Shown piece by piece: positions 1 to 8,717 of a stretch of 8,717 nucleotides of DNA. The position numbers were made by a program, and so were the translations under genes. The stretch lies in the IMG/VR virus record IMGVR_UViG_2724679073_000005. One strand, given 5' to 3'. The stretch comes from a virus (Duplodnaviria; Heunggongvirae; Uroviricota; Caudoviricetes). Numbering within the stretch: the stretch's first letter is position 1; every line of letters begins with the position of its first letter. Below the pieces are notes generated by a model that was not told the DNA's origin, did not search any database, and saw nothing but the letters and a program-made list of their open reading frames with translations.

Positions 1-332
1 CTAACTTTGCAACAGTGCCACCGGATTTACGCGGTGAGTTTATCCGTGGTTGGGATGATGGGCGAGGTGTGGATGCGGGAAGGGTCATCTTAAGCATACA
101 GGGGTGGTTAACAGGAAGTCATTATCATAATATTCGGTCATGGGACGCGTGGGATAACACGGTATTGGTGCCAAATGACAGAGGGGGGGATAGTCTGTTG
201 TCGACAGATAACGCCGTCCGGCAAGGAGCGATTAATGGTAAATTTACCAGTCAATACAGAACGGAGTTATCTGGGGGGAATGAAACCCGCCCACGTAACA
301 TTGCCTTCAATTATATTGTGAGAGCAGCATAA
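1..332 (+). CDS. Tail fibre protein, C-terminal variable (receptor-binding) cassette in expressed orientation; 5' end truncated by window edge
   Basis: Frame open from position 3 to TAA at 330-332 (NFATVPPDLRGEFIRGWDDGRG...ETRPRNIAFNYIVRAA). No credible start or RBS inside the window; the GTG at 15 is an ORF-caller artefact. Stop overlaps the ATG of the downstream chaperone gene (TAATG). Shares the GEFIRGWDDGRG block and the C-terminal 16-aa motif with the three minus-strand cassettes. Confidence 0.8.
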   Translation, partial: NFATVPPDLRGEFIRGWDDGRGVDAGRVILSIQGWLTGSHYHNIRSWDAWDNTVLVPNDRGGDSLLSTDNAVRQGAINGKFTSQYRTELSGGNETRPRNIAFNYIVRAA

Positions 333-943
333 TGGATAATGCGATATTAAATAGCGAACTTATAGCCATACAGGCAGGAAACATTATCGTTTATAACTAT
401 GATGGTGGTAATCGGGAATATATTTCTGCATCAACTGAATATCTTGCTGTTGGCGTTGGTATTCCGGCAAATTCTTGTTTGGATGCTCCAGGCTCACATA
501 AAGCAGGTTATGCGATTCTCCGTTCAGAGGATTTAAGTTCATGGGAGTATGTGCCAGATCATCGTGGCGAAACTGTCTATAGCATTGACACTGGGAATCC
601 CGAAGAAATCACGGTGTTGGGTGACTATCCGGAAAATACAACCACTATCGCCCCGCTAACACCATACGACAAATGGGATGGAGAGAAATGGGTGGTTGAT
701 ACTGAGGCTCAACATAGTGCAGCTGTAGAGGCAGCAGAAACAAAACGTCAGTCATTGATTGATACTGCGATGGATTCCATTAGTCTGATTCAGTTGAAAT
801 TACGGGCTGGACGGAAGTTGACGCAGGCAGAAACCACGCAGCTTAACTCCGTGCTAGATTATATAGACGAGCTGAACGCGATGGATTTAACCACGGCACC
901 AGATCTCAACTGGCCTGAAAAACAACTTTCTACAGCCAGTTGA
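332..943 (+). CDS. tfa: Tail fibre assembly protein (Tfa; Mu U / P2 G / lambda Tfa-type chaperone)
   Basis: 203-aa ORF translationally coupled to the tail-fibre stop. Size and position are typical of Tfa. C-terminal region (...LTQAETTQLNSVLDYIDELNAMDLTTAPDLNWPEKQ) resembles the conserved Tfa C-terminal domain ending in a (N/E)WPE motif, as recalled from P2 G. Confidence 0.8.
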   Translation: MDNAILNSELIAIQAGNIIVYNYDGGNREYISASTEYLAVGVGIPANSCLDAPGSHKAGYAILRSEDLSSWEYVPDHRGETVYSIDTGNPEEITVLGDYPENTTTIAPLTPYDKWDGEKWVVDTEAQHSAAVEAAETKRQSLIDTAMDSISLIQLKLRAGRKLTQAETTQLNSVLDYIDELNAMDLTTAPDLNWPEKQLSTAS

Positions 944-948
944 TATAA

Positions 949-1467
949 TTAATCCGCCCTCACAATATAATTAAATGCAATATTACGAGGGCGGGTTTCT
1001 AAGCCAGCAGTACCTAAATTAGCTACGGACTGTTTATATGTTTTAAAAGTTCCATAATTAGGGGCTGGCAATCCTGCATCGCTTGTGTTCCCCCATCTGA
1101 TAACTCCCGTATTACCACTAGTAGCCCATGCCTCGTCAAAGTAGAAATTAATTGAGCGGTCAGTTGCTACGGTTGATTTTGACGGTAATCCGTGAGCATG
1201 ATCCTCCGTTGCATATCCTTGCTCGCTTAAAATAGAGCGACCAGAGTCAATCCCTCGCCCATCATCCCAGCCACGGATAAACTCACCGCGTAAATCAGGT
1301 AATTTTAACGTTGGGTAAACCTTTGCCAGATTTGGGTACTTTTCAGAAGAAAATGCTGCTCCGTTACATTTCAGCCACCCCGTTGGCGGAGTGGCTGAGG
1401 GCCACGGAACAGGTACGCCAACAGGCAATGCTGAGCCTTCCCCCAAACCAACGTTTTTATGCCGCCC
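949..1467 (-). CDS. Silent alternative tail-fibre C-terminal cassette A (promoterless 3' gene segment)
   Basis: Minus-strand frame open from 1467 down to stop at 949-951: GRHKNVGLGEGSALPVGVPVPWPSATPPTGWLKCNGAAFSSEKYPNLAKVYPTLKLPDLRGEFIRGWDDGRG...ETRPRNIAFNYIVRAD. No ATG or RBS; the TTG 'start' at 1444-1446 lies inside the crossover-site candidate. Convergent with tfa, 5 bp apart. Confidence 0.7.
   Translation of the reverse strand, partial: GRHKNVGLGEGSALPVGVPVPWPSATPPTGWLKCNGAAFSSEKYPNLAKVYPTLKLPDLRGEFIRGWDDGRGIDSGRSILSEQGYATEDHAHGLPSKSTVATDRSINFYFDEAWATSGNTGVIRWGNTSDAGLPAPNYGTFKTYKQSVANLGTAGLETRPRNIAFNYIVRAD
1256..1467 (-). repeat. ~210-bp repeat unit (copy 1 of 3) covering the site-proximal conserved part of cassette A
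   Basis: Near-identical to 1769-1981 and 2228-2441 by direct comparison. Encodes GEGSALPVGVPVPWPSATPPTGWLKCNGAAFSSEKYPNLAK(V/A)YPT(L/N)KLPDLRGEFIRGWDDGRG. Boundaries approximate. Confidence 0.8.
1438..1463. other. Candidate 26-bp serine-invertase crossover site (site A), hix/gix/cix-like
   Basis: TTCCCCCAAACC-AA-CGTTTTTATGCC. Left 12-bp half matches the invertase half-site pattern TTnTCnnAAACC in 8 of 12 positions; central AA dinucleotide; right half degenerate. Sits at the 5' edge of cassette A and overlaps the stop codon of cassette B. Confidence 0.55.
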
Positions 1468-1981
1468 TTACGATGTAATTAAATGCAACGTTGCGAGGGC
1501 GAGTTTCTGTACCTACATTTCCACTAATTTCACCATAACGTTTAACACTACGAGAGCTAATAGCTCGTAGTGAGGAAGGCACCTTATGACCGGGTTCGTC
1601 CGTTTTAACTATTCCCCCGTCACCGTATGTAGCTAGTATTCCTGGATTTACGCCTTCCCGTGCACTTCCTGCGGCGAGTCCGCCCCCTGTCCATAATTCC
1701 ATATAGTGTGCATGGTCCAAAATTGTGTGTGGCTGCCAATTAAGCAAAGCGCGGCCAGCATCCACCCCGCGCCCATCATCCCAGCCACGGATAAATTCAC
1801 CGCGTAAATCAGGTAATTTTAACGTTGGGTAAACCTTTGCCAGATTTGGGTACTTTTCAGAAGAAAATGCTGCACCATTGCATTTCAGCCACCCCGTTGG
1901 CGGTGTGGCTGAGGGCCATGGAATAGGTACACCAACGGGCAGCGCCGAGCCTTCCCCTAAACCAACGTTTTTATGCCGCCC
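1457..1981 (-). CDS. Silent alternative tail-fibre C-terminal cassette B (promoterless 3' gene segment)
   Basis: Manual translation shows the minus-strand frame open from 1981 to stop at 1457-1459 (~174 codons); the ORF track only reports 1457-1765 from an internal GTG. Begins GRHKNVGLGEGSALPVGVPIPWPSATPPTGW...PDLRGEFIRGWDDGRGVDAG and ends ETRPRNVAFNYIVRAA. Its stop codon lies inside the crossover-site candidate of cassette A. Confidence 0.7.
   Translation of the reverse strand, partial: GRHKNVGLGEGSALPVGVPIPWPSATPPTGWLKCNGAAFSSEKYPNLAKVYPTLKLPDLRGEFIRGWDDGRGVDAGRALLNWQPHTILDHAHYMELWTGGGLAAGSAREGVNPGILATYGDGGIVKTDEPGHKVPSSLRAISSRSVKRYGEISGNVGTETRPRNVAFNYIVRAA
1769..1981 (-). repeat. ~210-bp repeat unit (copy 2 of 3), cassette B
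   Basis: The cassette C-terminal-proximal ~65 bp is identical to copy 1; the site-proximal ~135 bp is about 90% identical. Boundaries approximate. Confidence 0.8.
1952..1977. other. Candidate 26-bp serine-invertase crossover site (site B)
   Basis: TTCCCCTAAACC-AA-CGTTTTTATGCC, one mismatch to site A, same orientation. At the 5' edge of cassette B, overlapping the stop codon of cassette C. Confidence 0.55.
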
Positions 1982-2441
1982 TTACGATATAATTAAAGGC
2001 AATATTACGAGGACGGTTTTCATTAGCTGTTGGCACGACACGAGAGGCGTCGAATCCAAGGTCATCGGTTTTGCCTATATCAGTTGTGTTATTCGGCATT
2101 CTCGCAGATCGTGTTCCTGCATCATAAAAAGCCCCTCTGATTGCATCAAAAGACATGCCAATCCCGCCATCTGCGAACCCCTCAATATTTCTTATTGCAT
2201 CCCCCTGTGAAGATAATAATTGTCGCCCGGCATCCACACCACGTCCGTCATCCCAGCCACGAATAAATTCACCGCGTAAATCCGGCAATTTATTAGTAGG
2301 GTAAGCCTTTGCCAGATTTGGGTACTTTTCAGAAGAAAATGCTGCTCCGTTACATTTCAGCCACCCCGTTGGCGGAGTGGCTGAGGGCCACGGAACAGGT
2401 ACGCCAACAGGCAATGCTGAGCCTTCCCCCAAACCAACGTT
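1971..2441 (-). CDS. Silent alternative tail-fibre C-terminal cassette C (promoterless 3' gene segment)
   Basis: Minus-strand frame open from 2441 to stop at 1971-1973. N-terminal 42 residues are identical to cassette A (identical DNA over ~135 bp), followed by a distinct middle and ENRPRNIAFNYIVRAA at the C-terminus. No start codon or RBS of its own. Confidence 0.7.
   Translation of the reverse strand, partial: NVGLGEGSALPVGVPVPWPSATPPTGWLKCNGAAFSSEKYPNLAKAYPTNKLPDLRGEFIRGWDDGRGVDAGRQLLSSQGDAIRNIEGFADGGIGMSFDAIRGAFYDAGTRSARMPNNTTDIGKTDDLGFDASRVVPTANENRPRNIAFNYIVRAA
2228..2441 (-). repeat. ~210-bp repeat unit (copy 3 of 3), cassette C
   Basis: The site-proximal ~135 bp (2305-2440) is identical to copy 1 (1321-1446); the distal part has diverged (KAYPTNK versus KVYPTLK). 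Boundaries approximate. Confidence 0.8.
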
Positions 2442-2449
2442 TTAGTCTT
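2424..2449. other. Candidate 26-bp serine-invertase crossover site (site C), adjacent to invertase gene
   Basis: TTCCCCCAAACC-AA-CGTTTTAGTCTT. Left half and core identical to site A, right half diverges. Lies 55 bp upstream of the invertase ATG, the usual position of the gene-proximal site in Gin/Cin/Hin systems. Confidence 0.55.
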
Positions 2450-2503
2450 AATCCCTACCTATACCAACGATGTATTTTTAACTAAACAAAGAGGTTGTTT
2501 TTC

Positions 2504-3076
2504 ATGCAAATTGGCTACATTCGTGTGTCAACAAATGACCAAAACACAGATTTACAAAGAAATGCACTGAACTGCGCAGGATGTGAACTGATTTTTGAAG
2601 ATAAAATAAGCGGAACAAAGTCAGCCAGACCAGGCTTGAAAAAGCTGCTCAGAACGTTATCAGAAGGAGATACGCTGGTTGTCTGGAAGCTGGATAGGCT
2701 TGGCAGAAGTATGAAACACCTTATCACGCTTATAGAGGAGTTGCGGGAAAAAGGTGTTAATTTCCGTAGTCTGACAGACAGTATTGACACATCAACACCC
2801 ATGGGGCGTTTCTTTTTTCATGTCATGGGTGCTTTAGCAGAAATGGAACGTGAATTAATTGTTGAGAGAACACTGGCCGGACTGGCAGCTGCACGCGAAC
2901 AGGGACGCATTGGCGGACGTCGCCCGAAGTTGACAAAAGAACAACATGAGCAAATAGCGAGGTTGATCGAAAATGGCTACAGCAGGAAACAGTTGGCAAT
3001 TATTTACGATATCGGTGTATCGACGATTTATCGTTATCATCCTGTAGAGAAGCGCCAAACTCAATCTGAGCTGTAA
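2504..3076 (+). CDS. Serine site-specific DNA invertase, Gin/Cin/Pin/Hin/Min family (resolvase-type catalytic domain plus C-terminal HTH)
   Basis: MQIGYIRVSTNDQNTDLQRNAL... carries the catalytic-serine motif (RVST), the conserved VVWKLDRLGRS and FRSLTDSIDTSTPMGRFFFHVMGALAEMERELI blocks, and the GRIGGRRPKLT hinge, followed by an HTH tail. ATG at 2504 has an AAGAGG RBS 10 nt upstream. Exact ortholog (cin, min, pin) cannot be decided by eye. Confidence 0.95.
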   Translation: MQIGYIRVSTNDQNTDLQRNALNCAGCELIFEDKISGTKSARPGLKKLLRTLSEGDTLVVWKLDRLGRSMKHLITLIEELREKGVNFRSLTDSIDTSTPMGRFFFHVMGALAEMERELIVERTLAGLAAAREQGRIGGRRPKLTKEQHEQIARLIENGYSRKQLAIIYDIGVSTIYRYHPVEKRQTQSEL

Positions 3077-3196
3077 TTCTAATGCCGCGTCGGTGTAATT
3101 TATCTTGATAGAATAGGTACATTTATCGCGCGGCACATCAATTCGATGTATCTAGCGCCTGCTGACCGCTAATGAAAACTGTTCTCGAAATGTTGT

Positions 3197-3215
3197 CCCT
3201 AGTCCGAGACTAGGG
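3197..3215. promoter_or_regulatory. Perfect 8-3-8 inverted repeat (CCCTAGTC-cga-GACTAGGG); candidate operator or late-promoter element
   Basis: 19-bp dyad in the non-coding leader between the invertase and the downstream operon. No U-run follows, so it is not an intrinsic terminator. A TANNNT hexamer (TAGGGT, 3211-3216) overlaps its right arm, positioned 3' of the dyad centre. Function unverified. Confidence 0.35.
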
Positions 3216-3511
3216 TATCACCTCTGGAAAGCATACGCAGAACCTTTTTTAACCCAGGGTGCCCAGCTTTTTTGCTGCTCGCCTTATTCGCAAAAATTAG
3301 CTCACATCCTGCGCTTTCAAGTGCTTTTCACTGCATAGCTGTGTTTTGTTCATTTGTCTATATGCGTACATAGCCTATTAGCATATTTTCTGCCCACTAT
3401 CGTTATTTATTGCAAGCTACAGGTTTTAATTAACAAAACCAGTGTGTGTGGAAATCACAAAGTGCATACCGTTCTCAAATGTTGTTCAACTTACTGTTGT
3501 ATAGGTAAAAA

Positions 3512-3775
3512 ATGACATTTTATGTACATATCGTGATGTTATCCCTTCTTGGTGGGGTGTATTCGTATTTGAGTGGGCTATGTGAAAACCGTTACGAGTC
3601 TTCATGCAAGAAATTGCTGGCCGAATGTATTTCCGCCGTACTTGCTGGCTTTATTGGCATGTATCTCGCGGAATATAAGGACATGAATGAAAGCCTTCAG
3701 AGCTGCATGGTTCTTATTTTCAGCGCCAATAGCAGGCTTATTATTGAAGGTTCCAAAAGTCGGTTGAATAGGTAA
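3512..3775 (+). CDS. Hypothetical small membrane protein (two predicted TM helices; possibly holin-like)
   Basis: 87-aa ORF with two hydrophobic stretches (VHIVMLSLLGGVYSYLSGL and LAECISAVLAGFIGMYLAEY) and a weak AGGT RBS. Co-oriented with and just upstream of the lysis/dar operon. Confidence 0.35.
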   Translation: MTFYVHIVMLSLLGGVYSYLSGLCENRYESSCKKLLAECISAVLAGFIGMYLAEYKDMNESLQSCMVLIFSANSRLIIEGSKSRLNR

Positions 3776-3820
3776 GTCTCTTATGCAACATAACCGGTTG
3801 AGAAGTTACTTTGCATACCA

Positions 3821-3846
3821 TTACCTCCTGACAACGTAGGAGGGAA
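3821..3846 (+). promoter_or_regulatory. Hairpin that sequesters the Shine-Dalgarno of the 3850 ORF
   Basis: CCTCCT (3824-3829) pairs with AGGAGG (3838-3843) across an 8-nt loop; the stem extends by two more pairs beyond one mismatch. The GGAGG RBS for the GTG start at 3850 sits inside the 3' arm. Confidence 0.35.
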
Positions 3847-3849
3847 CTT

Positions 3850-4179
3850 GTGCTTGACACACAGGAATTAGCTCCAGTTGCTATTGCGCTCCTGCTTTCA
3901 GTAATTGGTGGGATAGGCACGTTCCTGATGGATGTCCGAGACGGTCGCCAGTCTGGCAATTTGTTGGGATTGGTTACGGAGATCTTTGTTGCAGTGACAG
4001 CTGGCGCGGTGGCGTACCTATTGGGGCAACACGAGGGCTGGGAGTTATCAATTACGTACTTAATGGTAACGATAGCCAGCAATAACGGTCATGAGGTGAT
4101 TTCAGGGATGAAACGAGTGAATATCGATAGCATTCTGAATGTTCTTACAAGTTTGGTGAAAAAGGGAGGCGGGAAATGA
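3850..4179 (+). CDS. lydA: Holin-like small membrane protein (2-3 TM helices, basic C-terminus); candidate P1 LydA homolog
   Basis: 109-aa ORF with GTG start and a strong GGAGG RBS. Hydrophobic helices (LAPVAIALLLSVIGGIGTFL and LLGLVTEIFVAVTAGAVAYLLG) and a KKGGGK tail. First gene of a coupled operon leading into dar-like genes, as in the P1 lydA-lydB-dar operon. Symbol assigned by architecture, not by sequence search. Confidence 0.5.
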   Translation: MLDTQELAPVAIALLLSVIGGIGTFLMDVRDGRQSGNLLGLVTEIFVAVTAGAVAYLLGQHEGWELSITYLMVTIASNNGHEVISGMKRVNIDSILNVLTSLVKKGGGK

Positions 4180-4619
4180 TTGGCTGGGGTGTATGCGTTC
4201 TTGCGTTAGCCTTAGCCGATCGCTATTTGCTAAAACGCAAGGACATCACGCATTTAGAACTTGGTGATGTGGAAATTAAACCGGGTTTCATCCGGGTGCC
4301 GTTCAAATACCGGTCTAAATTCCCGTTTTTGCGCGGCGCAACGGTCAGATATTGGATCCGCGATGTTCAGAAGCCGACGACAGTGATTGAAGGCGAACAA
4401 CGTTGTTTGACGTCGGCTGAACAGGGCGAAAACAGTGAATGGTTGTACATACCCACTGAATATATGGGTAAAGGAGAGCGACTGTGGCATTTCAACGTCA
4501 TGGTTACGCATGGCGACTCGTTCATTAACCCGTTGTATCGGATTTTCCCTGTTACTCAGCAAATCCGCAGAAGTTACGTAATAAATCTCGCACAGGATGT
4601 GTCAGATGACGAAAAATAA
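4176..4619 (+). CDS. lydB: Membrane-anchored protein; candidate antiholin (P1 LydB-like)
   Basis: 147-aa ORF whose ATG overlaps the upstream stop (ATGA). N-terminal hydrophobic anchor (MIGWGVCVLALALA) followed by a soluble domain. Position between the holin-like gene and the hdf-like gene. Symbol assigned by synteny only. Confidence 0.45.
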   Translation: MIGWGVCVLALALADRYLLKRKDITHLELGDVEIKPGFIRVPFKYRSKFPFLRGATVRYWIRDVQKPTTVIEGEQRCLTSAEQGENSEWLYIPTEYMGKGERLWHFNVMVTHGDSFINPLYRIFPVTQQIRRSYVINLAQDVSDDEK

Positions 4620-5208
4620 GTATGCAACGGTCGATTTTGACCAGGTTAATGAAAAGGGGCTGAAATCCCTTATCGCGGCGATCAATAAAACCGGTGTTAC
4701 GGTAATTGAGGTTGACTCCAGCAACCGCGCAACAACGAAAGATGGCGTTAAAGTTAAAACCGCAAAGCTGGTTCTTAACGACGGACAAATTCTTGCCATA
4801 CAGGTAAACGATACTGGCGATATATCGTCTGTGAGGCTGAATGGAAAAGCTATTCCTAACGCTCAGTCGCCGGATATCAAGACGCTTGGTACCGTCATGG
4901 GGCAAGCGGCCCGCAAAAACTCCGCAAAATTCCAGAAATCACTGATCGCCAAAGCGAAACGTGTTGCCAATCCGGTAGACAAGAAACCGGCAGTAAAATC
5001 CAACTTTCAGCGCCTGCAAGAGGCAAAACAGCGGAATGCTCAGGTGGTTGCCGCTTATAAATCAGCGCAGAACTCGGTGTCTTTCAATCAACAGCAGATC
5101 ACTGATTTGCGGGCGAAGCTGGATAAGGAGACAGGCCGACTCAATAACGAAAAGGCCCGAAATGGCGAACTCAAACGCCGTCTTAAGCAACTGAAAGCAG
5201 GAAATTAA
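4606..5208 (+). CDS. hdf: Hdf-like protein (paralog of a DarA internal domain); putative capsid-associated antirestriction accessory protein
   Basis: ORF track start is 4597, but the ATG at 4606 has an AGGA RBS 8 nt upstream and is the likelier start. Shares a ~70-aa domain with the next protein (LNDGQILAIQV...TLGTVMGQAARKNSAKFQ versus LSDGQTISILF...TLAQVTMKLANLAEKNSAKFQ), then a basic coiled-coil tail. Size (~22 kDa) and position match P1 hdf. Confidence 0.55.
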   Translation: MTKNKYATVDFDQVNEKGLKSLIAAINKTGVTVIEVDSSNRATTKDGVKVKTAKLVLNDGQILAIQVNDTGDISSVRLNGKAIPNAQSPDIKTLGTVMGQAARKNSAKFQKSLIAKAKRVANPVDKKPAVKSNFQRLQEAKQRNAQVVAAYKSAQNSVSFNQQQITDLRAKLDKETGRLNNEKARNGELKRRLKQLKAGN

Positions 5209-5209
5209 C

Positions 5210-7129
5210 ATGGAACAGTTCAATATCAATAAAGGGGTGACGATCAAGCCTGGGCTTGACGTGCTTCCCCCGCCAGTGACTGATGATGAATATCGCGCAT
5301 TAATGGCCGGTGAGGACCGCTATCTGATGACGGAATCCAACACCCTGGAGGAAATCGAGGCTACGTTCTTCTATGACACGCCGATCCACTGGTGTGCTAC
5401 GGATTTACTGGAGGCGATTAGTTCTACTCGTTTGCAGTTACACCGGACCATGCAGGCATTTGTCCGGGCATTGAACCAGAAGCTGAATGGTACCGGAATC
5501 TCTGCGGGGAGTGATAAAACGGGGGATGTGGCCCAGAGCGGCGCGCGCGCGATCGGCGGTGCTGAAATTGGCCGGGCACGTAACGTTAACGGGCTGCCGG
5601 TCCTGCCAGCCATTATTCCGCTCAGTGATGGTCAGACTATCAGCATTCTGTTTCATAGCCCGACAGCGGAAAACCGGATCACCAATAGCGATACGCTGGT
5701 TGCTTTCCAGTTCTTACTGAATAAAAAAGACGTTACTCACACCGTTGCTCCGATGAGTGGACGTGATATGACGCTGGCGCAGGTCACCATGAAACTTGCC
5801 AACCTTGCAGAGAAAAACTCGGCAAAATTTCAGCGTGCGCAGAAGAAGAAAAAAGCCCTTGTTGATGAAATAACCCAACTACAGGCTGACAGTGACCAGA
5901 AAGAGGATGCCATGAGCGACCTCGTGGATCAGGTGGCAGCGGTAGAAGGGCAGAAGGTAGATCTGGAGCAGAAAATTAACGCTGTTGCATCGGAAGCGGA
6001 TTCTCTTTATGAAGAGAATGAGCGTTTGCAGACGGAGATTGATCAGCTCAATCGCACTGGTGGGCGCGATACCATTGCTCCTGCGGGGATGACTGGTGGA
6101 CACTCTCGCGCGATGACGGATCGCCTTGCCAGTATCAAAAATCGTATGCATATGAACGGGGAAGTGACGCTCAGTAATGGTGCATCAATGAAGCAATTCA
6201 TTGAGGACGGCGAAGGGTATATCCAGTTAACCGATTCGGATGGCAGCGTGTACATGATCAAGGCTAAATCCATACAGGGTGTGGACATGGCAGATGCGAT
6301 CGGCAAGCTGTTTAAAGCCTATAAAGCGGGTAATGTATCGGAATACCTGGTCCAACCAGAAGAACATAAACCGGAAAACGTCGAACCTGAACCAGCGGAG
6401 GATACCGGTAGCTCTTCGCCTGAACCAGAAGTCTCTGTAGGTGCATATCGATATGCCCTGCAAATGCGTCCGGCGGCCCCTGGCGCAATACCTGAAGGTA
6501 ACAAAGCAATTCTGCCGCGCCCTGATGAAGGTGACCCGTATTATGAATATGCACGCTACGGCATTGCTACTTACGATACCCCGCTTTCTGATCAGCAAAT
6601 GAGTGAGTACGACCTGAAGTTATTGCCTCGCGAGGATTCTTTCGACTTCCTGGCGAAGACACTTACTAATGGTCCGTTTGGCAAATATGCACAAAAAGCT
6701 CTGGAGCTGGCCACCAGCTCACCAGACGAGTTCCGCGTAATGCTGAAAACTCAGTTTCAAAAAACTTTCCCCAATATTGCGTTTCCGGGGGGCGCTGGCA
6801 CCGAGAAAATGGTGCAGAGCATGATCAATGCATTGCAGGCCGAAGTCGGTGAGATTACTCAGCCAGAACCTGCCCCGGCACAGCCTGATGAAACGGTTAG
6901 CGAAGCAGATGCAGAGGCTAATAAAGCCATTGAATATCTCAATAACGTGATGGATATGCAAAGCACTGACATGGCGGAGATCCGTAACGCCCGGGGCAAT
7001 GTCCGGGAAGCGATTGCAGCCCTTCAGGCTGCCGGACGTTTTGAGGAAAACGAAGAGCTGGTTAATGGCGCTGCTCGCCACCTGGCTGATCTGCTGGTAG
7101 CAATCCAGAAAGCGGGGGTAGCGGCATGA
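5210..7129 (+). CDS. darA: DarA-like protein (phage internal head / defence-against-restriction protein)
   Basis: 639-aa ORF (~70 kDa) with an AGGA RBS. Contains the hdf-like domain, a long heptad-rich coiled-coil (about residues 190-285) and Pro/Glu-rich linkers. Size, flanking hdf-like and 121-aa genes, and position downstream of the tail-fibre invertase match the P1 darA operon as recalled from the literature. Not verified by search. Confidence 0.6.
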   Translation: MEQFNINKGVTIKPGLDVLPPPVTDDEYRALMAGEDRYLMTESNTLEEIEATFFYDTPIHWCATDLLEAISSTRLQLHRTMQAFVRALNQKLNGTGISAGSDKTGDVAQSGARAIGGAEIGRARNVNGLPVLPAIIPLSDGQTISILFHSPTAENRITNSDTLVAFQFLLNKKDVTHTVAPMSGRDMTLAQVTMKLANLAEKNSAKFQRAQKKKKALVDEITQLQADSDQKEDAMSDLVDQVAAVEGQKVDLEQKINAVASEADSLYEENERLQTEIDQLNRTGGRDTIAPAGMTGGHSRAMTDRLASIKNRMHMNGEVTLSNGASMKQFIEDGEGYIQLTDSDGSVYMIKAKSIQGVDMADAIGKLFKAYKAGNVSEYLVQPEEHKPENVEPEPAEDTGSSSPEPEVSVGAYRYALQMRPAAPGAIPEGNKAILPRPDEGDPYYEYARYGIATYDTPLSDQQMSEYDLKLLPREDSFDFLAKTLTNGPFGKYAQKALELATSSPDEFRVMLKTQFQKTFPNIAFPGGAGTEKMVQSMINALQAEVGEITQPEPAPAQPDETVSEADAEANKAIEYLNNVMDMQSTDMAEIRNARGNVREAIAALQAAGRFEENEELVNGAARHLADLLVAIQKAGVAA

Positions 7130-7491
7130 CACTATCAGCTATTGAGTTAATGGATCTCAGCGATAAGTTGGATGCTCTGATGTCCAAAGCGGCTACCGCG
7201 AGTGGCATGGAGTTGCTGGATATCAGCGATGAAATTGACCAGATCATGCAACAGATGGGGTACGGCGCGTCCGGCGGCAGTAGTGGCGAGGAAAAACAAC
7301 CTTCGGTACATGATGGTGTGCCAAAACTGGTTGCTGATTTCCTGGCTGATAAATTCGTCGATCAGAGCACAGATGCATTTATCGGTACCTTGCAGGACTT
7401 GAGTCAATATGTTGGCACATACATCGACCTGGACCAGGTTAAACAGCACACGGCGGCATGGATAGCCGCCAACATTGAAGAGGCAGCATAA
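7126..7491 (+). CDS. ddrA: DdrA-like small acidic protein
   Basis: 121-aa ORF (~13 kDa) with ATGA overlap to the upstream stop. Acidic, with a Gly/Ser linker (GYGASGGSSGEE). Position immediately after the darA-like gene. Confidence 0.5.
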   Translation: MTLSAIELMDLSDKLDALMSKAATASGMELLDISDEIDQIMQQMGYGASGGSSGEEKQPSVHDGVPKLVADFLADKFVDQSTDAFIGTLQDLSQYVGTYIDLDQVKQHTAAWIAANIEEAA

Positions 7492-7503
7492 GGCGTAACA
7501 GGG

Positions 7504-8717
7504 ATGAGCTTAAGCGATCAGGTGGTAATGGCCACCAGCATAGAAACGCTGATCGAGCTGCTTAAGAACCTGCCCGATTATGGGCGGGTTTCGTATGTGG
7601 TGACAGCGAAGGGAGACGAGGTAAAAACAGCGTTTGATATCGTCGATGCCTCAGCTCTTTTGGTATCCAATACTCTGGATGGGAAAATTAATCCTGACTA
7701 TCCCCAGGAACTTCAGCCGCGCGACCGGACCCGCGCATCCAGCCTTCTTCAGGTTAACCAGATATCCAAAGATTTGCGGCCTGCTCAGCTTACTGATTCC
7801 GGTTTATCCAGCCATGGTGCGCCGATAATTGGTGAGGACAATGCCGTTGAGTCAGGTAATGGACGGACCATGGGGATCATCAAAGCCTATCAGGACGGCA
7901 ATGCGGATCGGTATCGTGAGTACCTGATTGATCATGCGACCGAATTCGGCATACGACCTGAAAAGGTTGAATCAATGACGGCTCCGGTACTGGTGCGCCG
8001 CCGGTTAACTAAGGTTGACCGCGTTCAGTTTGCCAAGGACTCAAATATTTCTGATCTTCAGGAAATGGCAGCCAGTGAAAAGGCTTTTGTTGATGCCGAC
8101 AGCATAACACCGGCGATGATGGCGCTTTTTAACCCGTCAGAAAGCGGAGATCTGCTTAGCCGCAGTAATGACGCGTTTATTCGCGGATTTATGACGCAAG
8201 TTGGTGCCACACAGGCGGCTGGCCTTGTAACTGAAGATGGGCGACCAACACGGCAACTTGTAGACCGTATACAAAACGCGATCTTTGCCAAGGCATATAA
8301 GGATGCGCGCCTGGTAAGGATGGTTGCAGAAGAACCTGATCCGGATATGCGTAATGTTCTGACGGCGCTTAATGCGGCAGCCAATGATTTTGTCCAGATG
8401 CAGGCTTTATCAGGAGAAGCGCACAAGCAGGCTGTGACAACTATTGTTGATGGCATTGAGACAGCGGATAGCCTCGATAAAAAGGCGCTGGCGGCATTGA
8501 AAGATGCGGTAGACCTGGTAAGGCAATCGAAGGAGTCAGGCCAGCATATTACCGATGTTATTGCTCAGGGGGATATGTTCAGCGAAACGGCCCCGGAAGT
8601 GAAAGCACTCGCGTTGTTCATCGTCGCGAATAACCGTAGCGCGAAGCGTATGGCCACCGCCTTTAAGTTGATGGCTCAACGTATCAATGATGAGTTACAG
8701 GGCACTGTTGCAAAGTT
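7504..8717 (+). CDS. ddrB: DdrB-like large protein, N-terminal ~404 codons (3' end beyond window)
   Basis: Checked codon by codon: frame open from ATG at 7504 to the window end with no stop. The ORF track misses it because no stop is reached. Follows the ddrA-like gene as in the P1 darA operon. Confidence 0.5.
   Translation, partial: MSLSDQVVMATSIETLIELLKNLPDYGRVSYVVTAKGDEVKTAFDIVDASALLVSNTLDGKINPDYPQELQPRDRTRASSLLQVNQISKDLRPAQLTDSGLSSHGAPIIGEDNAVESGNGRTMGIIKAYQDGNADRYREYLIDHATEFGIRPEKVESMTAPVLVRRRLTKVDRVQFAKDSNISDLQEMAASEKAFVDADSITPAMMALFNPSESGDLLSRSNDAFIRGFMTQVGATQAAGLVTEDGRPTRQLVDRIQNAIFAKAYKDARLVRMVAEEPDPDMRNVLTALNAAANDFVQMQALSGEAHKQAVTTIVDGIETADSLDKKALAALKDAVDLVRQSKESGQHITDVIAQGDMFSETAPEVKALALFIVANNRSAKRMATAFKLMAQRINDELQGTVAK

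Follow-up and report, generated by a model that had tools for sequence, protein, structure and literature searches.

The multiple DNA-inversion system Min of p15B, from E. coli 15T-, was reportedly described by Sandmeier, Iida and Arber in 1990-1992 (GenBank X62121), and has six sites, for which 240 isomers were reported. The Cin system of phage P1 and the Gin system of phage Mu likewise combine a serine invertase, 26-bp sites with a 2-bp core and an enhancer within the 5′-terminal part of the invertase gene, and fuse a constant fibre part (Sc) to alternative 3′-ends, but they have two sites, one invertible segment and two tips that belong to another fold family than those of the window, each with its cognate U or U′ chaperone. 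The Pin/P-segment of e14 and the Phi2 prophage of E. coli EC958 are also two-site, two-tip switches, with collar-domain tips and a separate downstream tfa-like gene for each tip. The Phi2 sites, TCCTCAATTACC-TT-GGTTTAGGAGAA and GAGAGATAAACG-TT-GGTTTGGGGGAA, are nearly identical to those of the locus presented here and have been observed inverted in PacBio reads (PMC4134206). Min is classed among serine-recombinase shufflons and varies tail fibres; the R64 shufflon (Rci) and bifidophage Rin also choose the C-terminus of one adhesin gene through overlapping invertible segments, as here, but rely on a tyrosine recombinase acting at other sites; in R64 the target is the PilV pilus adhesin (PMC6109161).

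The stretch of DNA analysed here (the window; 8,717 nucleotides) very probably carries the right-hand portion of a multiple DNA-inversion system of Min type in a p15B/P1-like phage-plasmid of E. coli (probability about 0.9). It shares with p15B Min a P1-like backbone, the type of site and of cassette, a single tfa gene and n! × 2 combinatorics; three silent cassettes and a fourth, D, are visible, so that at least four sites are expected here against the six of p15B. The locus occupies the same genome position as in P1, between S and lydC/lydA. Having four or more sites, four tips and a single tfa gene, it is not a two-state switch of the P1/Mu kind, and it also differs from the e14 and EC958 switches, in which each tip has its own tfa-like gene. 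In P1 the cin gene points toward the invertible segment, whereas in the window the invertase gene is oriented away from the segment and a dead remnant of cin has been kept.

The window is collinear with the min region of p15B. Four segments of the window lie at a constant offset of 3935 from X62121, the p15B coordinates being taken from the P1 record, and their identities to P1 match the values recorded for p15B. This mapping runs from the invertase gene to lydA and includes the truncated cin scar. The invertase and Tfa are each 100% identical to a UniRef entry (Q05517_ECOLX and TFAB_ECOLX, respectively), both of which we take, from the entry names and the coordinate mapping, to be p15B proteins. 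Plasmid pMCR_SCKP-LL83 (L009), which has been reported to be 99% identical to p15B min (PMC5786510), is 98.4% identical to the window. The preliminary description of the window had likened the locus to Min of p15B, and the sites, junctions, orientation rule and p15B coordinate mapping all agree with that comparison.

Cassettes and crossover sites

The features that had been described for the window are present (Table 1), and the repetition of the crossover site is far beyond chance: TTCCCCYAAACCAACGTTTT occurs three times on one strand, at 1438, 1952 and 2424, where 0.00 copies are expected.

Table 1. Features of the tail fibre cassette array and the adjoining invertase region (window coordinates).
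Feature	Position	Strand	Remarks
Cassette D, 3′ part	1..332	+	109 codons and stop; collar-type tail-fibre tip; frame open to TAA at 330-332
tfa, tail-fibre assembly protein	332..943	+	203 aa; Pfam Caudo_TAP, E 3e-30
Cassette A, silent alternative fibre tip	949..1449	-	166 codons; lacks a start codon
Site sA	1438..1463	-	A head half 1438-1449; core AA/TT 1450-1451; outer half 1452-1463 (GGCATAAAAACG) holds stop codon of B
Cassette B, silent alternative fibre tip	1457..1963	-	168 codons
Site sB	1952..1977	-	B head half; core 1964-1965; outer half (GGCATAAAAACG) holds stop codon of C
Cassette C, silent alternative fibre tip	1971..2435	-	154 codons
Site sC	2424..2449	-	Right-hand limit of the invertible region; fixed
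Serine DNA invertase, Hin/Gin/Cin/Pin/Min (Din) group	2504..3076	+	190 aa
Presumed recombinational (Fis-dependent) enhancer	2522..2593	+	5′-end of invertase gene; homology only
Truncated cin pseudogene	3208..3384	-	First 177 nt; stop at codon 9; from alignment to P1

Position 1 of the window lies 44 codons inside cassette D, so the upstream junction of D is not visible, its crossover site being located further upstream, outside the window. The D fragment is identical to the C-terminus of a 703-aa tail fibre protein with Phage_fiber_2 repeats and a Collar domain in the related plasmid L001, and the D tip is homologous to tips of the T4 gp12/gp37 type. The repeat search of the window paired positions 20-95 of D, as an inverted repeat, with the three cassette heads, and the D tail (282-333) with the tail of A. 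Of the relatives in which D is intact and forward, three have it joined to the constant part, and in five it is a silent cassette in the interior of the array; the most collinear relative (L026) has a frameshifted D copy with three forward cassettes ahead of it. Because the position of D varies in this way, four cassettes are a minimum for the locus. The preliminary description had D expressed and A to C silent; three intact minus-strand tips are indeed present, while the expression of D is an assumption that the window alone cannot settle.

Cassettes A, B and C are all open from site to stop codon, and in each the encoded Phage Tail Collar domain is complete (E about 1e-15); they had been called intact rather than degraded, and these frames and domains bear this out. 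Their alignment also confirms the proposed modular build of site, conserved part, variable part and conserved tail, with ~70 conserved residues followed by ~65-90 variable ones and the tail ETRPRN(I/V)AFNYIVRA(A/D). At the nucleotide level, a 281-nt unit is found at 1234, 1748 and 2220, the later copies being 89% and 75% identical to the first, and a 51-nt "tail" unit at 949, 1457 and 1971. The tail of A is turned toward the end of tfa, and no site separates the two. Repeats D3 and I5-I13 (with the exception of I5) were set aside as short chance matches. A scan of positions 1-3900 for sigma-70 promoters and terminators gave matches that did not exceed those in shuffled sequence, and is uninformative on separate promoters for tfa or the cassettes; Rfam gave no match at gathering thresholds.

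No inverted copy of the site was found in the window with up to three mismatches allowed. In near-identical plasmids, the partner is located about 130-156 bp upstream of the position equivalent to window position 1; in L001 it reads TTCTTGATTACC-TT-GGTTTGGGAGAA and lies inside the S fibre gene. It is present in 17 of 17 relatives whose contig spans its position, the contig of L025 beginning downstream of it. The inverted site predicted in the upstream part of the tail fibre gene thus exists in the S gene of these plasmids, outside the stretch presented here. The array is bounded by fixed outer half-sites, TTCTTGATTACC next to Sc and AAGACTAAAACG toward the invertase gene, the latter (the outer half of sC) being invariant in the 17 relatives that keep the invertase-proximal boundary, which is cut by IS26 in L003.

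Invertase region and tfa

The invertase contains the Resolvase (E 2e-51) and HTH_7 (E 3e-15) domains and the catalytic-serine motif YIRVSTNDQ, is 74% identical to P1 Cin, and is called Pin-like by several sources. The presumed enhancer shares about 83-85% identity with the annotated P1 enhancer (31678-31749 of the P1 record), and corresponds to p15B nt 6463-6533 according to a note in that record; Fis dependence is suggested by this homology. The cin pseudogene is followed by a P1-type cin promoter region, and window positions 3208-5533 are 94% identical to P1. The pseudogene region corresponds to p15B 7147-7408 and, judging from the alignment, is the scar of a Cin system that was replaced by the Min system.

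The start codon (ATG) of tfa overlaps the stop codon of D. That the window has only one tfa gene had been regarded as distinctive; the single gene is there, yet exactly one is found in all 18 relatives, always within the D-tfa-A segment. This segment is forward in 11 relatives and the window and reversed in seven, so both orientations occur in natural plasmids. In the seven, tfa lies in antisense orientation relative to the fibre operon, and the tip fused to Sc is a different one: A or a B/A chimera, or, where A is preceded by forward cassettes, H and F. Tip choice and chaperone supply may conceivably be independent of each other in this shufflon, an idea we put forward tentatively and consider rather doubtful. 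Collar-type tips other than D might fold without any Tfa, or the single tfa could be transcribed in either orientation, for example from the leftward P1-type cin promoters beside the dead cin gene.

Isomers among related plasmids and the proposed mechanism

Fusions of Sc to A, B and C were predicted to be in frame, and each exists in public plasmids as one contiguous alignment (Sc-A, 100% coverage and 98.4% identity; Sc-B, 98.3%; Sc-C, 97.6%). NZ_LR890200 and two further plasmids carry A joined in frame to the constant part; B is joined to it in NZ_CP123256 and NZ_CP126930, and C in NZ_CP135714. All three junctions anticipated in the preliminary description therefore occur elsewhere, annotated as full-length tail fibre proteins. 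The orientation rule of the p15B-Min shufflon is obeyed by 112 of 112 sites in 18 related loci, and nine shared cassettes are found in three different orders in L009, L015 and L025, a comparison between different isolates and not between cells of one clone. A BLAST search of window positions 300-2520 against E. coli genomes returned no identical arrangement (the most collinear record was NZ_CP091679), and a gapped-pattern search of genome and viral contigs for A and B adjacent to each other, both reversed, gave no match. An exact DarA match was found in thousands of contigs, most of which have a different, simpler tail-fibre module.

The long tail-fibre gene S has a constant 5′ part (Sc) ending at a 26-bp crossover site, with several promoterless 3′ cassettes downstream, each starting with the "head" half of a site and encoding a collar domain similar to that of gp12/gp37, a variable insert for receptor binding and a C-terminal strand that is conserved. 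In the proposed mechanism, the invertase would act on any two oppositely oriented sites and exchange strands at their central TT/AA dinucleotide, probably assisted by Fis bound to the enhancer in its own 5′ coding region. Since the D-tfa-A segment has a head at both ends and the other segments a head and a tail, cassettes to its left always lie forward and those to its right backward. A locus of n segments could adopt n! × 2 arrangements; the four inferred sites, a minimum, would give three segments, 12 arrangements and four alternative tips. The cassette abutting Sc would be translated as the fibre tip, and because its stop codon lies in the next site, the downstream cassettes would stay silent. 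The expected outcome is a phage population of mixed receptor specificity, the tips presumably differing in host range.

The differences in cassette order could alternatively be explained by RecA-dependent recombination between the ~200-bp heads and 50-bp tails, with little or no role for the invertase; recombination between inverted heads would yield an identical orientation rule. The heads are mosaic between plasmids and not strictly tied to the variable part of the cassette (D of L001 is unlike that of L004, L007 and L008), and L014 carries a chimeric B/A cassette, from which it follows that homologous recombination also acts here; the number of cassettes, which ranges from 3 to 9 across relatives, fits this as well. 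However, the homology ends precisely where a canonical 26-bp site of the Din type has its core dinucleotide, and an intact invertase gene with its enhancer homologue is conserved beside the array in 17 non-truncated relatives (L003, interrupted by IS26, is without it). Among closely related plasmids, moreover, the entire head moves with its cassette (B of the window versus L004; J in L007), and Min and related sites are invertible by experiment (PMC6109161, PMC4134206). Single-nucleotide differences in the head region, considered as a means of separating exchanges made by the invertase from those made by RecA, were not decisive because the heads are mosaic. RecA as the main source of the rearrangements is improbable; we infer that the invertase would make the inversions in this element, and probably both processes operate, on different time scales.

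Even less credible is a frozen array, in which the minus-strand cassettes would be remnants, or small "phage tail proteins" expressed on their own, and no switching would take place. PGAP does annotate the cassettes as separate CDSs, and the inverted site falls outside the window; yet A to C are without an ATG or a ribosome-binding site, and the TTG and GTG starts called for them sit inside the crossover site. Their reading frames are unbroken and continue that of Sc, and each cassette type is fused to Sc in some plasmid.

Implications for P1-like plasmids

The Min-type reading makes this locus an already known multiple-inversion system; the preliminary description was right, and the system is ordinary. 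The same locus is present in hundreds of sequenced E. coli phage-plasmids and carries little weight as a discovery. It is nevertheless of practical relevance to sequence records, as automatic annotation splits the cassettes into free-standing "phage tail proteins", and plasmid assemblies of such loci can mix isomers. Relatives of the window have up to nine tips (in theory 8! × 2 arrangements) and are larger than the classic six-site example. Such larger shufflons bear on the host range of resistance-carrying P1-like plasmids.

Tip cassettes, crossover sites and predicted junctions

Re-examination of repeats, sites, reading frames and domains confirmed every feature listed in the preliminary description. 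Repeat analysis of the window recovered three copies each of a 281-nt unit (at 1234, 1748 and 2220) and a 51-nt tail unit (at 949, 1457 and 1971), and plus-strand fragments 20–95 and 282–333 are inverted repeats of the heads and tail of these minus-strand units. The silent tail-fibre tip cassettes A, B and C, described as intact, are indeed open from their crossover sites, and each encodes a complete Phage Tail Collar domain. Aligned with cassette D, they comprise a conserved head of ~70 residues, a variable middle and the conserved tail ETRPRN(I/V)AFNYIVRA(A/D). Compared with T4 gp12/gp37-type tips, the head matches the collar and the tail the C-terminal strand, and the variable part corresponds to the receptor-binding insert. 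One feature absent from the preliminary description is the placement of the B and C stop codons, each of which falls in the outer half of the crossover site that follows (GGCATAAAAACG), so that consecutive cassettes are linked through the sites.

Features of the window
Feature	Position	Strand	Remarks
tfa	332–943		Caudo_TAP protein; ATG overlaps D stop
Cassette A	1449–949	minus	open frame from site, 166 codons
Cassette B	1963–1457	minus	open frame from site, 168 codons
Cassette C	2435–1971	minus	open frame from site, 154 codons
Serine recombinase gene	2504–3076		Resolvase+HTH_7 product
Truncated cin pseudogene	3208–3384	minus	first 177 nt, 94% identical to P1, stop at codon 9
LydA-family holin genes	3512–3775 and 3850–4179		homologues of P1 lydC, lydA

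The sequence TTCCCCYAAACCAACGTTTT occurs three times in a single orientation (chance expectation, none), and no inverted copy was found in the window with up to three mismatches allowed. Window positions 1–332 correspond in NZ_CP098199 (L001; 98.7% identical) to the end of a tail-fibre gene whose 703-aa product shows a Collar domain and seven matches to the Phage_fiber_2 repeat. The inverted partner site expected upstream is present in this gene as TTCTTGATTACC-TT-GGTTTGGGAGAA, and would map 130–156 bp before the window begins. It shares the head half of the window's three sites and differs from them in the outer half, as in the cixL and cixR sites of P1.

Recombinant junctions between Sc, the constant 5′ part of the tail-fibre gene, and each silent cassette were built in silico by strand exchange at the core dinucleotide, and all three were in frame. 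Each predicted fusion was found in public plasmids, where it is annotated as a full-length tail fibre protein: Sc-A as one contiguous alignment, 98.4% identical at 100% coverage (L003, NZ_LR890200, and two more records), Sc-B at 98.3% identity (NZ_CP123256, NZ_CP126930) and Sc-C at 97.6% (NZ_CP135714). In NZ_LR890200, inverted tfa and D lie directly 3′ of the Sc-A fusion, which is precisely the layout that an inversion using the Sc site and site A produces. An IS26 copy (6817–7521) in the same plasmid truncates the inverted D cassette and has removed the remaining shufflon and the invertase; the locus is locked as Sc-A, and tfa is antisense.

Identity with Min of p15B and the P1 backbone

The window is part of a P1-like phage-plasmid of E. 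coli. It is matched in 629 plasmid records and in 1987 of 5426 complete E. coli genomes, with ~40 plasmid records reaching at least 80% window coverage at 97–99% identity. From 3208 onward it shares 94% identity with phage P1 across the cin promoter region, lydC, lydA, lydB, hdf and the start of darA; the remainder of darA, ddrA and ddrB lie past the end of the P1 stretch used for comparison. After the holin pair come lydB, hdf (DarA_N domain), darA, ddrA and the beginning of ddrB; together with the holin genes they make up the usual P1 block for lysis and anti-restriction. P1-like contigs L016–L022 and L024 encode an identical DarA and carry another fibre module (949-aa S, 192-aa Tfa, opposite-strand invertase and a Tfa fragment). 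In L024, P2-type baseplate/fibre genes (V, W, J, I, H) are joined directly to the P1-type lydA–darA block, reflecting either a misassembly or a genuine hybrid.

The preliminary likening of the locus to Min, the multiple-inversion system of plasmid p15B (GenBank X62121), was correct, and the switching locus is an already known system. The invertase and Tfa are 100% identical to UniRef Q05517_ECOLX and TFAB_ECOLX, respectively, and the invertase shares 74% identity with Cin. The P1 GenBank record gives coordinates in p15B record ECP15BG for four stretches, all matched by the window at a constant offset (p15B minus 3935).

Stretches shared by the window, p15B and P1
Window	p15B	Window-to-P1 identity	p15B-to-P1 identity (P1 record)
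2528–2598	6463–6533	85%	83%
3212–3473	7147–7408	90%	89%
3548–3701	7483–7638	84%	84%
3793–4359	7728–8294	99.8%	99%

Plasmid pMCR_SCKP-LL83 (L009) is 98.4% identical to the window, and its authors report that it shares 99% identity with the min region of p15B (PMC5786510). In a further P1-like plasmid, the invertase reaches 98.5% identity with Min of X62121 (PMC6906374). A description of the Min shufflon has been published (PMC6109161), and inversion at near-identical sites in EC958 prophage Phi2 was seen in PacBio reads (PMC4134206).

The cin fragment adjoins a P1-type cin promoter region extending to ~3480, and the live invertase gene runs outward from the invertible region, whereas cin of P1 has the opposite orientation. 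A Pin/Min-type module reportedly replaced a Cin module in a P1-like ancestor (Sandmeier et al. 1992), and both the fragment and the invertase orientation fit such a replacement. The fragment region also keeps a second enhancer-like copy, and its P1-type cin promoters point leftward, into the invertase gene and silent cassettes. Just 3′ of the invertase gene, 36 nt of the plus strand (3160–3195), 81% complementary to the cassette C tail (2000–2035), represent the fossil tail of a cassette (…ANEN.SRN…), oriented forward and probably debris of module replacement.

Arrangement and recombination of the cassette array

Sites, cassettes, tfa and invertase were mapped in 18 related loci, a comparison of different isolates. 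The Sc-side outer half-site TTCTTGATTACC is fixed in every locus retaining it (single-base variants in three), the invertase-side one, AAGACTAAAACG, is fixed and invariant wherever retained, and interior outer halves are the neighbouring cassette's tail. Cassette heads lie at both ends of the D-tfa-A segment, and every other segment pairs a head end with a tail end. A site can form only from one head and one tail-type half, so cassettes must face forward on the left of D-tfa-A and backward on its right, giving n! x 2 arrangements for n segments. This orientation rule is kept by 112/112 sites. D-tfa-A is forward in the window and 11 relatives and reversed in seven; L009, L015 and L025 hold one cassette set in three different orders, and all four cassette types of the window occur as Sc fusions in one locus or another. 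Loci carry 3 to 9 cassettes, with at least 12 intact types overall. Cassette J occurs twice in L007 (NZ_LR882054; 2824–2849 and 5433–5458) with an identical head haplotype, one copy fused to Sc and the other adjoining the invertase, either a real duplication or an assembly from mixed isomers; cassette K is likewise doubled in L014.

Most likely, the invertase, with Fis on an enhancer homologue (2522–2593), would exchange strands at the TT/AA core of inverted sites; the cassette adjoining Sc would then be translated as the fibre tip, and its stop, in the next site, would silence the remaining cassettes. The 215-nt conserved heads (window, L001, L003–L005, L007 and L008) contain 71 variable positions in mosaic patterns not strictly tied to cassette type, which suggests frequent gene conversion among heads. 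In L014 (NZ_CP026725), an Sc-fused cassette (5205–5725) with the variable region of B and the …RAD tail of A occupies the place of A in D-tfa-A, and is a chimera from homologous recombination between cassettes. The array is thus remodelled by homologous recombination as well, and comparison alone cannot tell its effects from those of the invertase.

The single tfa gene stands, as a family trait and not a peculiarity of the window. The expression of D was an assumption only, because the window starts inside D and its 5′ part lies outside. An Sc fusion of D is present in L001, L008 and L027, and in L004, L005, L007, L010 and L012 D lies in the interior of the array as a forward cassette. Applied to the six sites that p15B is reported to have (Sandmeier et al. 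1990–91), n! x 2 gives the published 240 isomers; the four sites inferred for the window give 12 isomers and four tips. The most collinear relative, L026, shares the layout tfa> A< B< C< invertase and has three forward cassettes upstream of D, so the window's locus may hold more than four tips.
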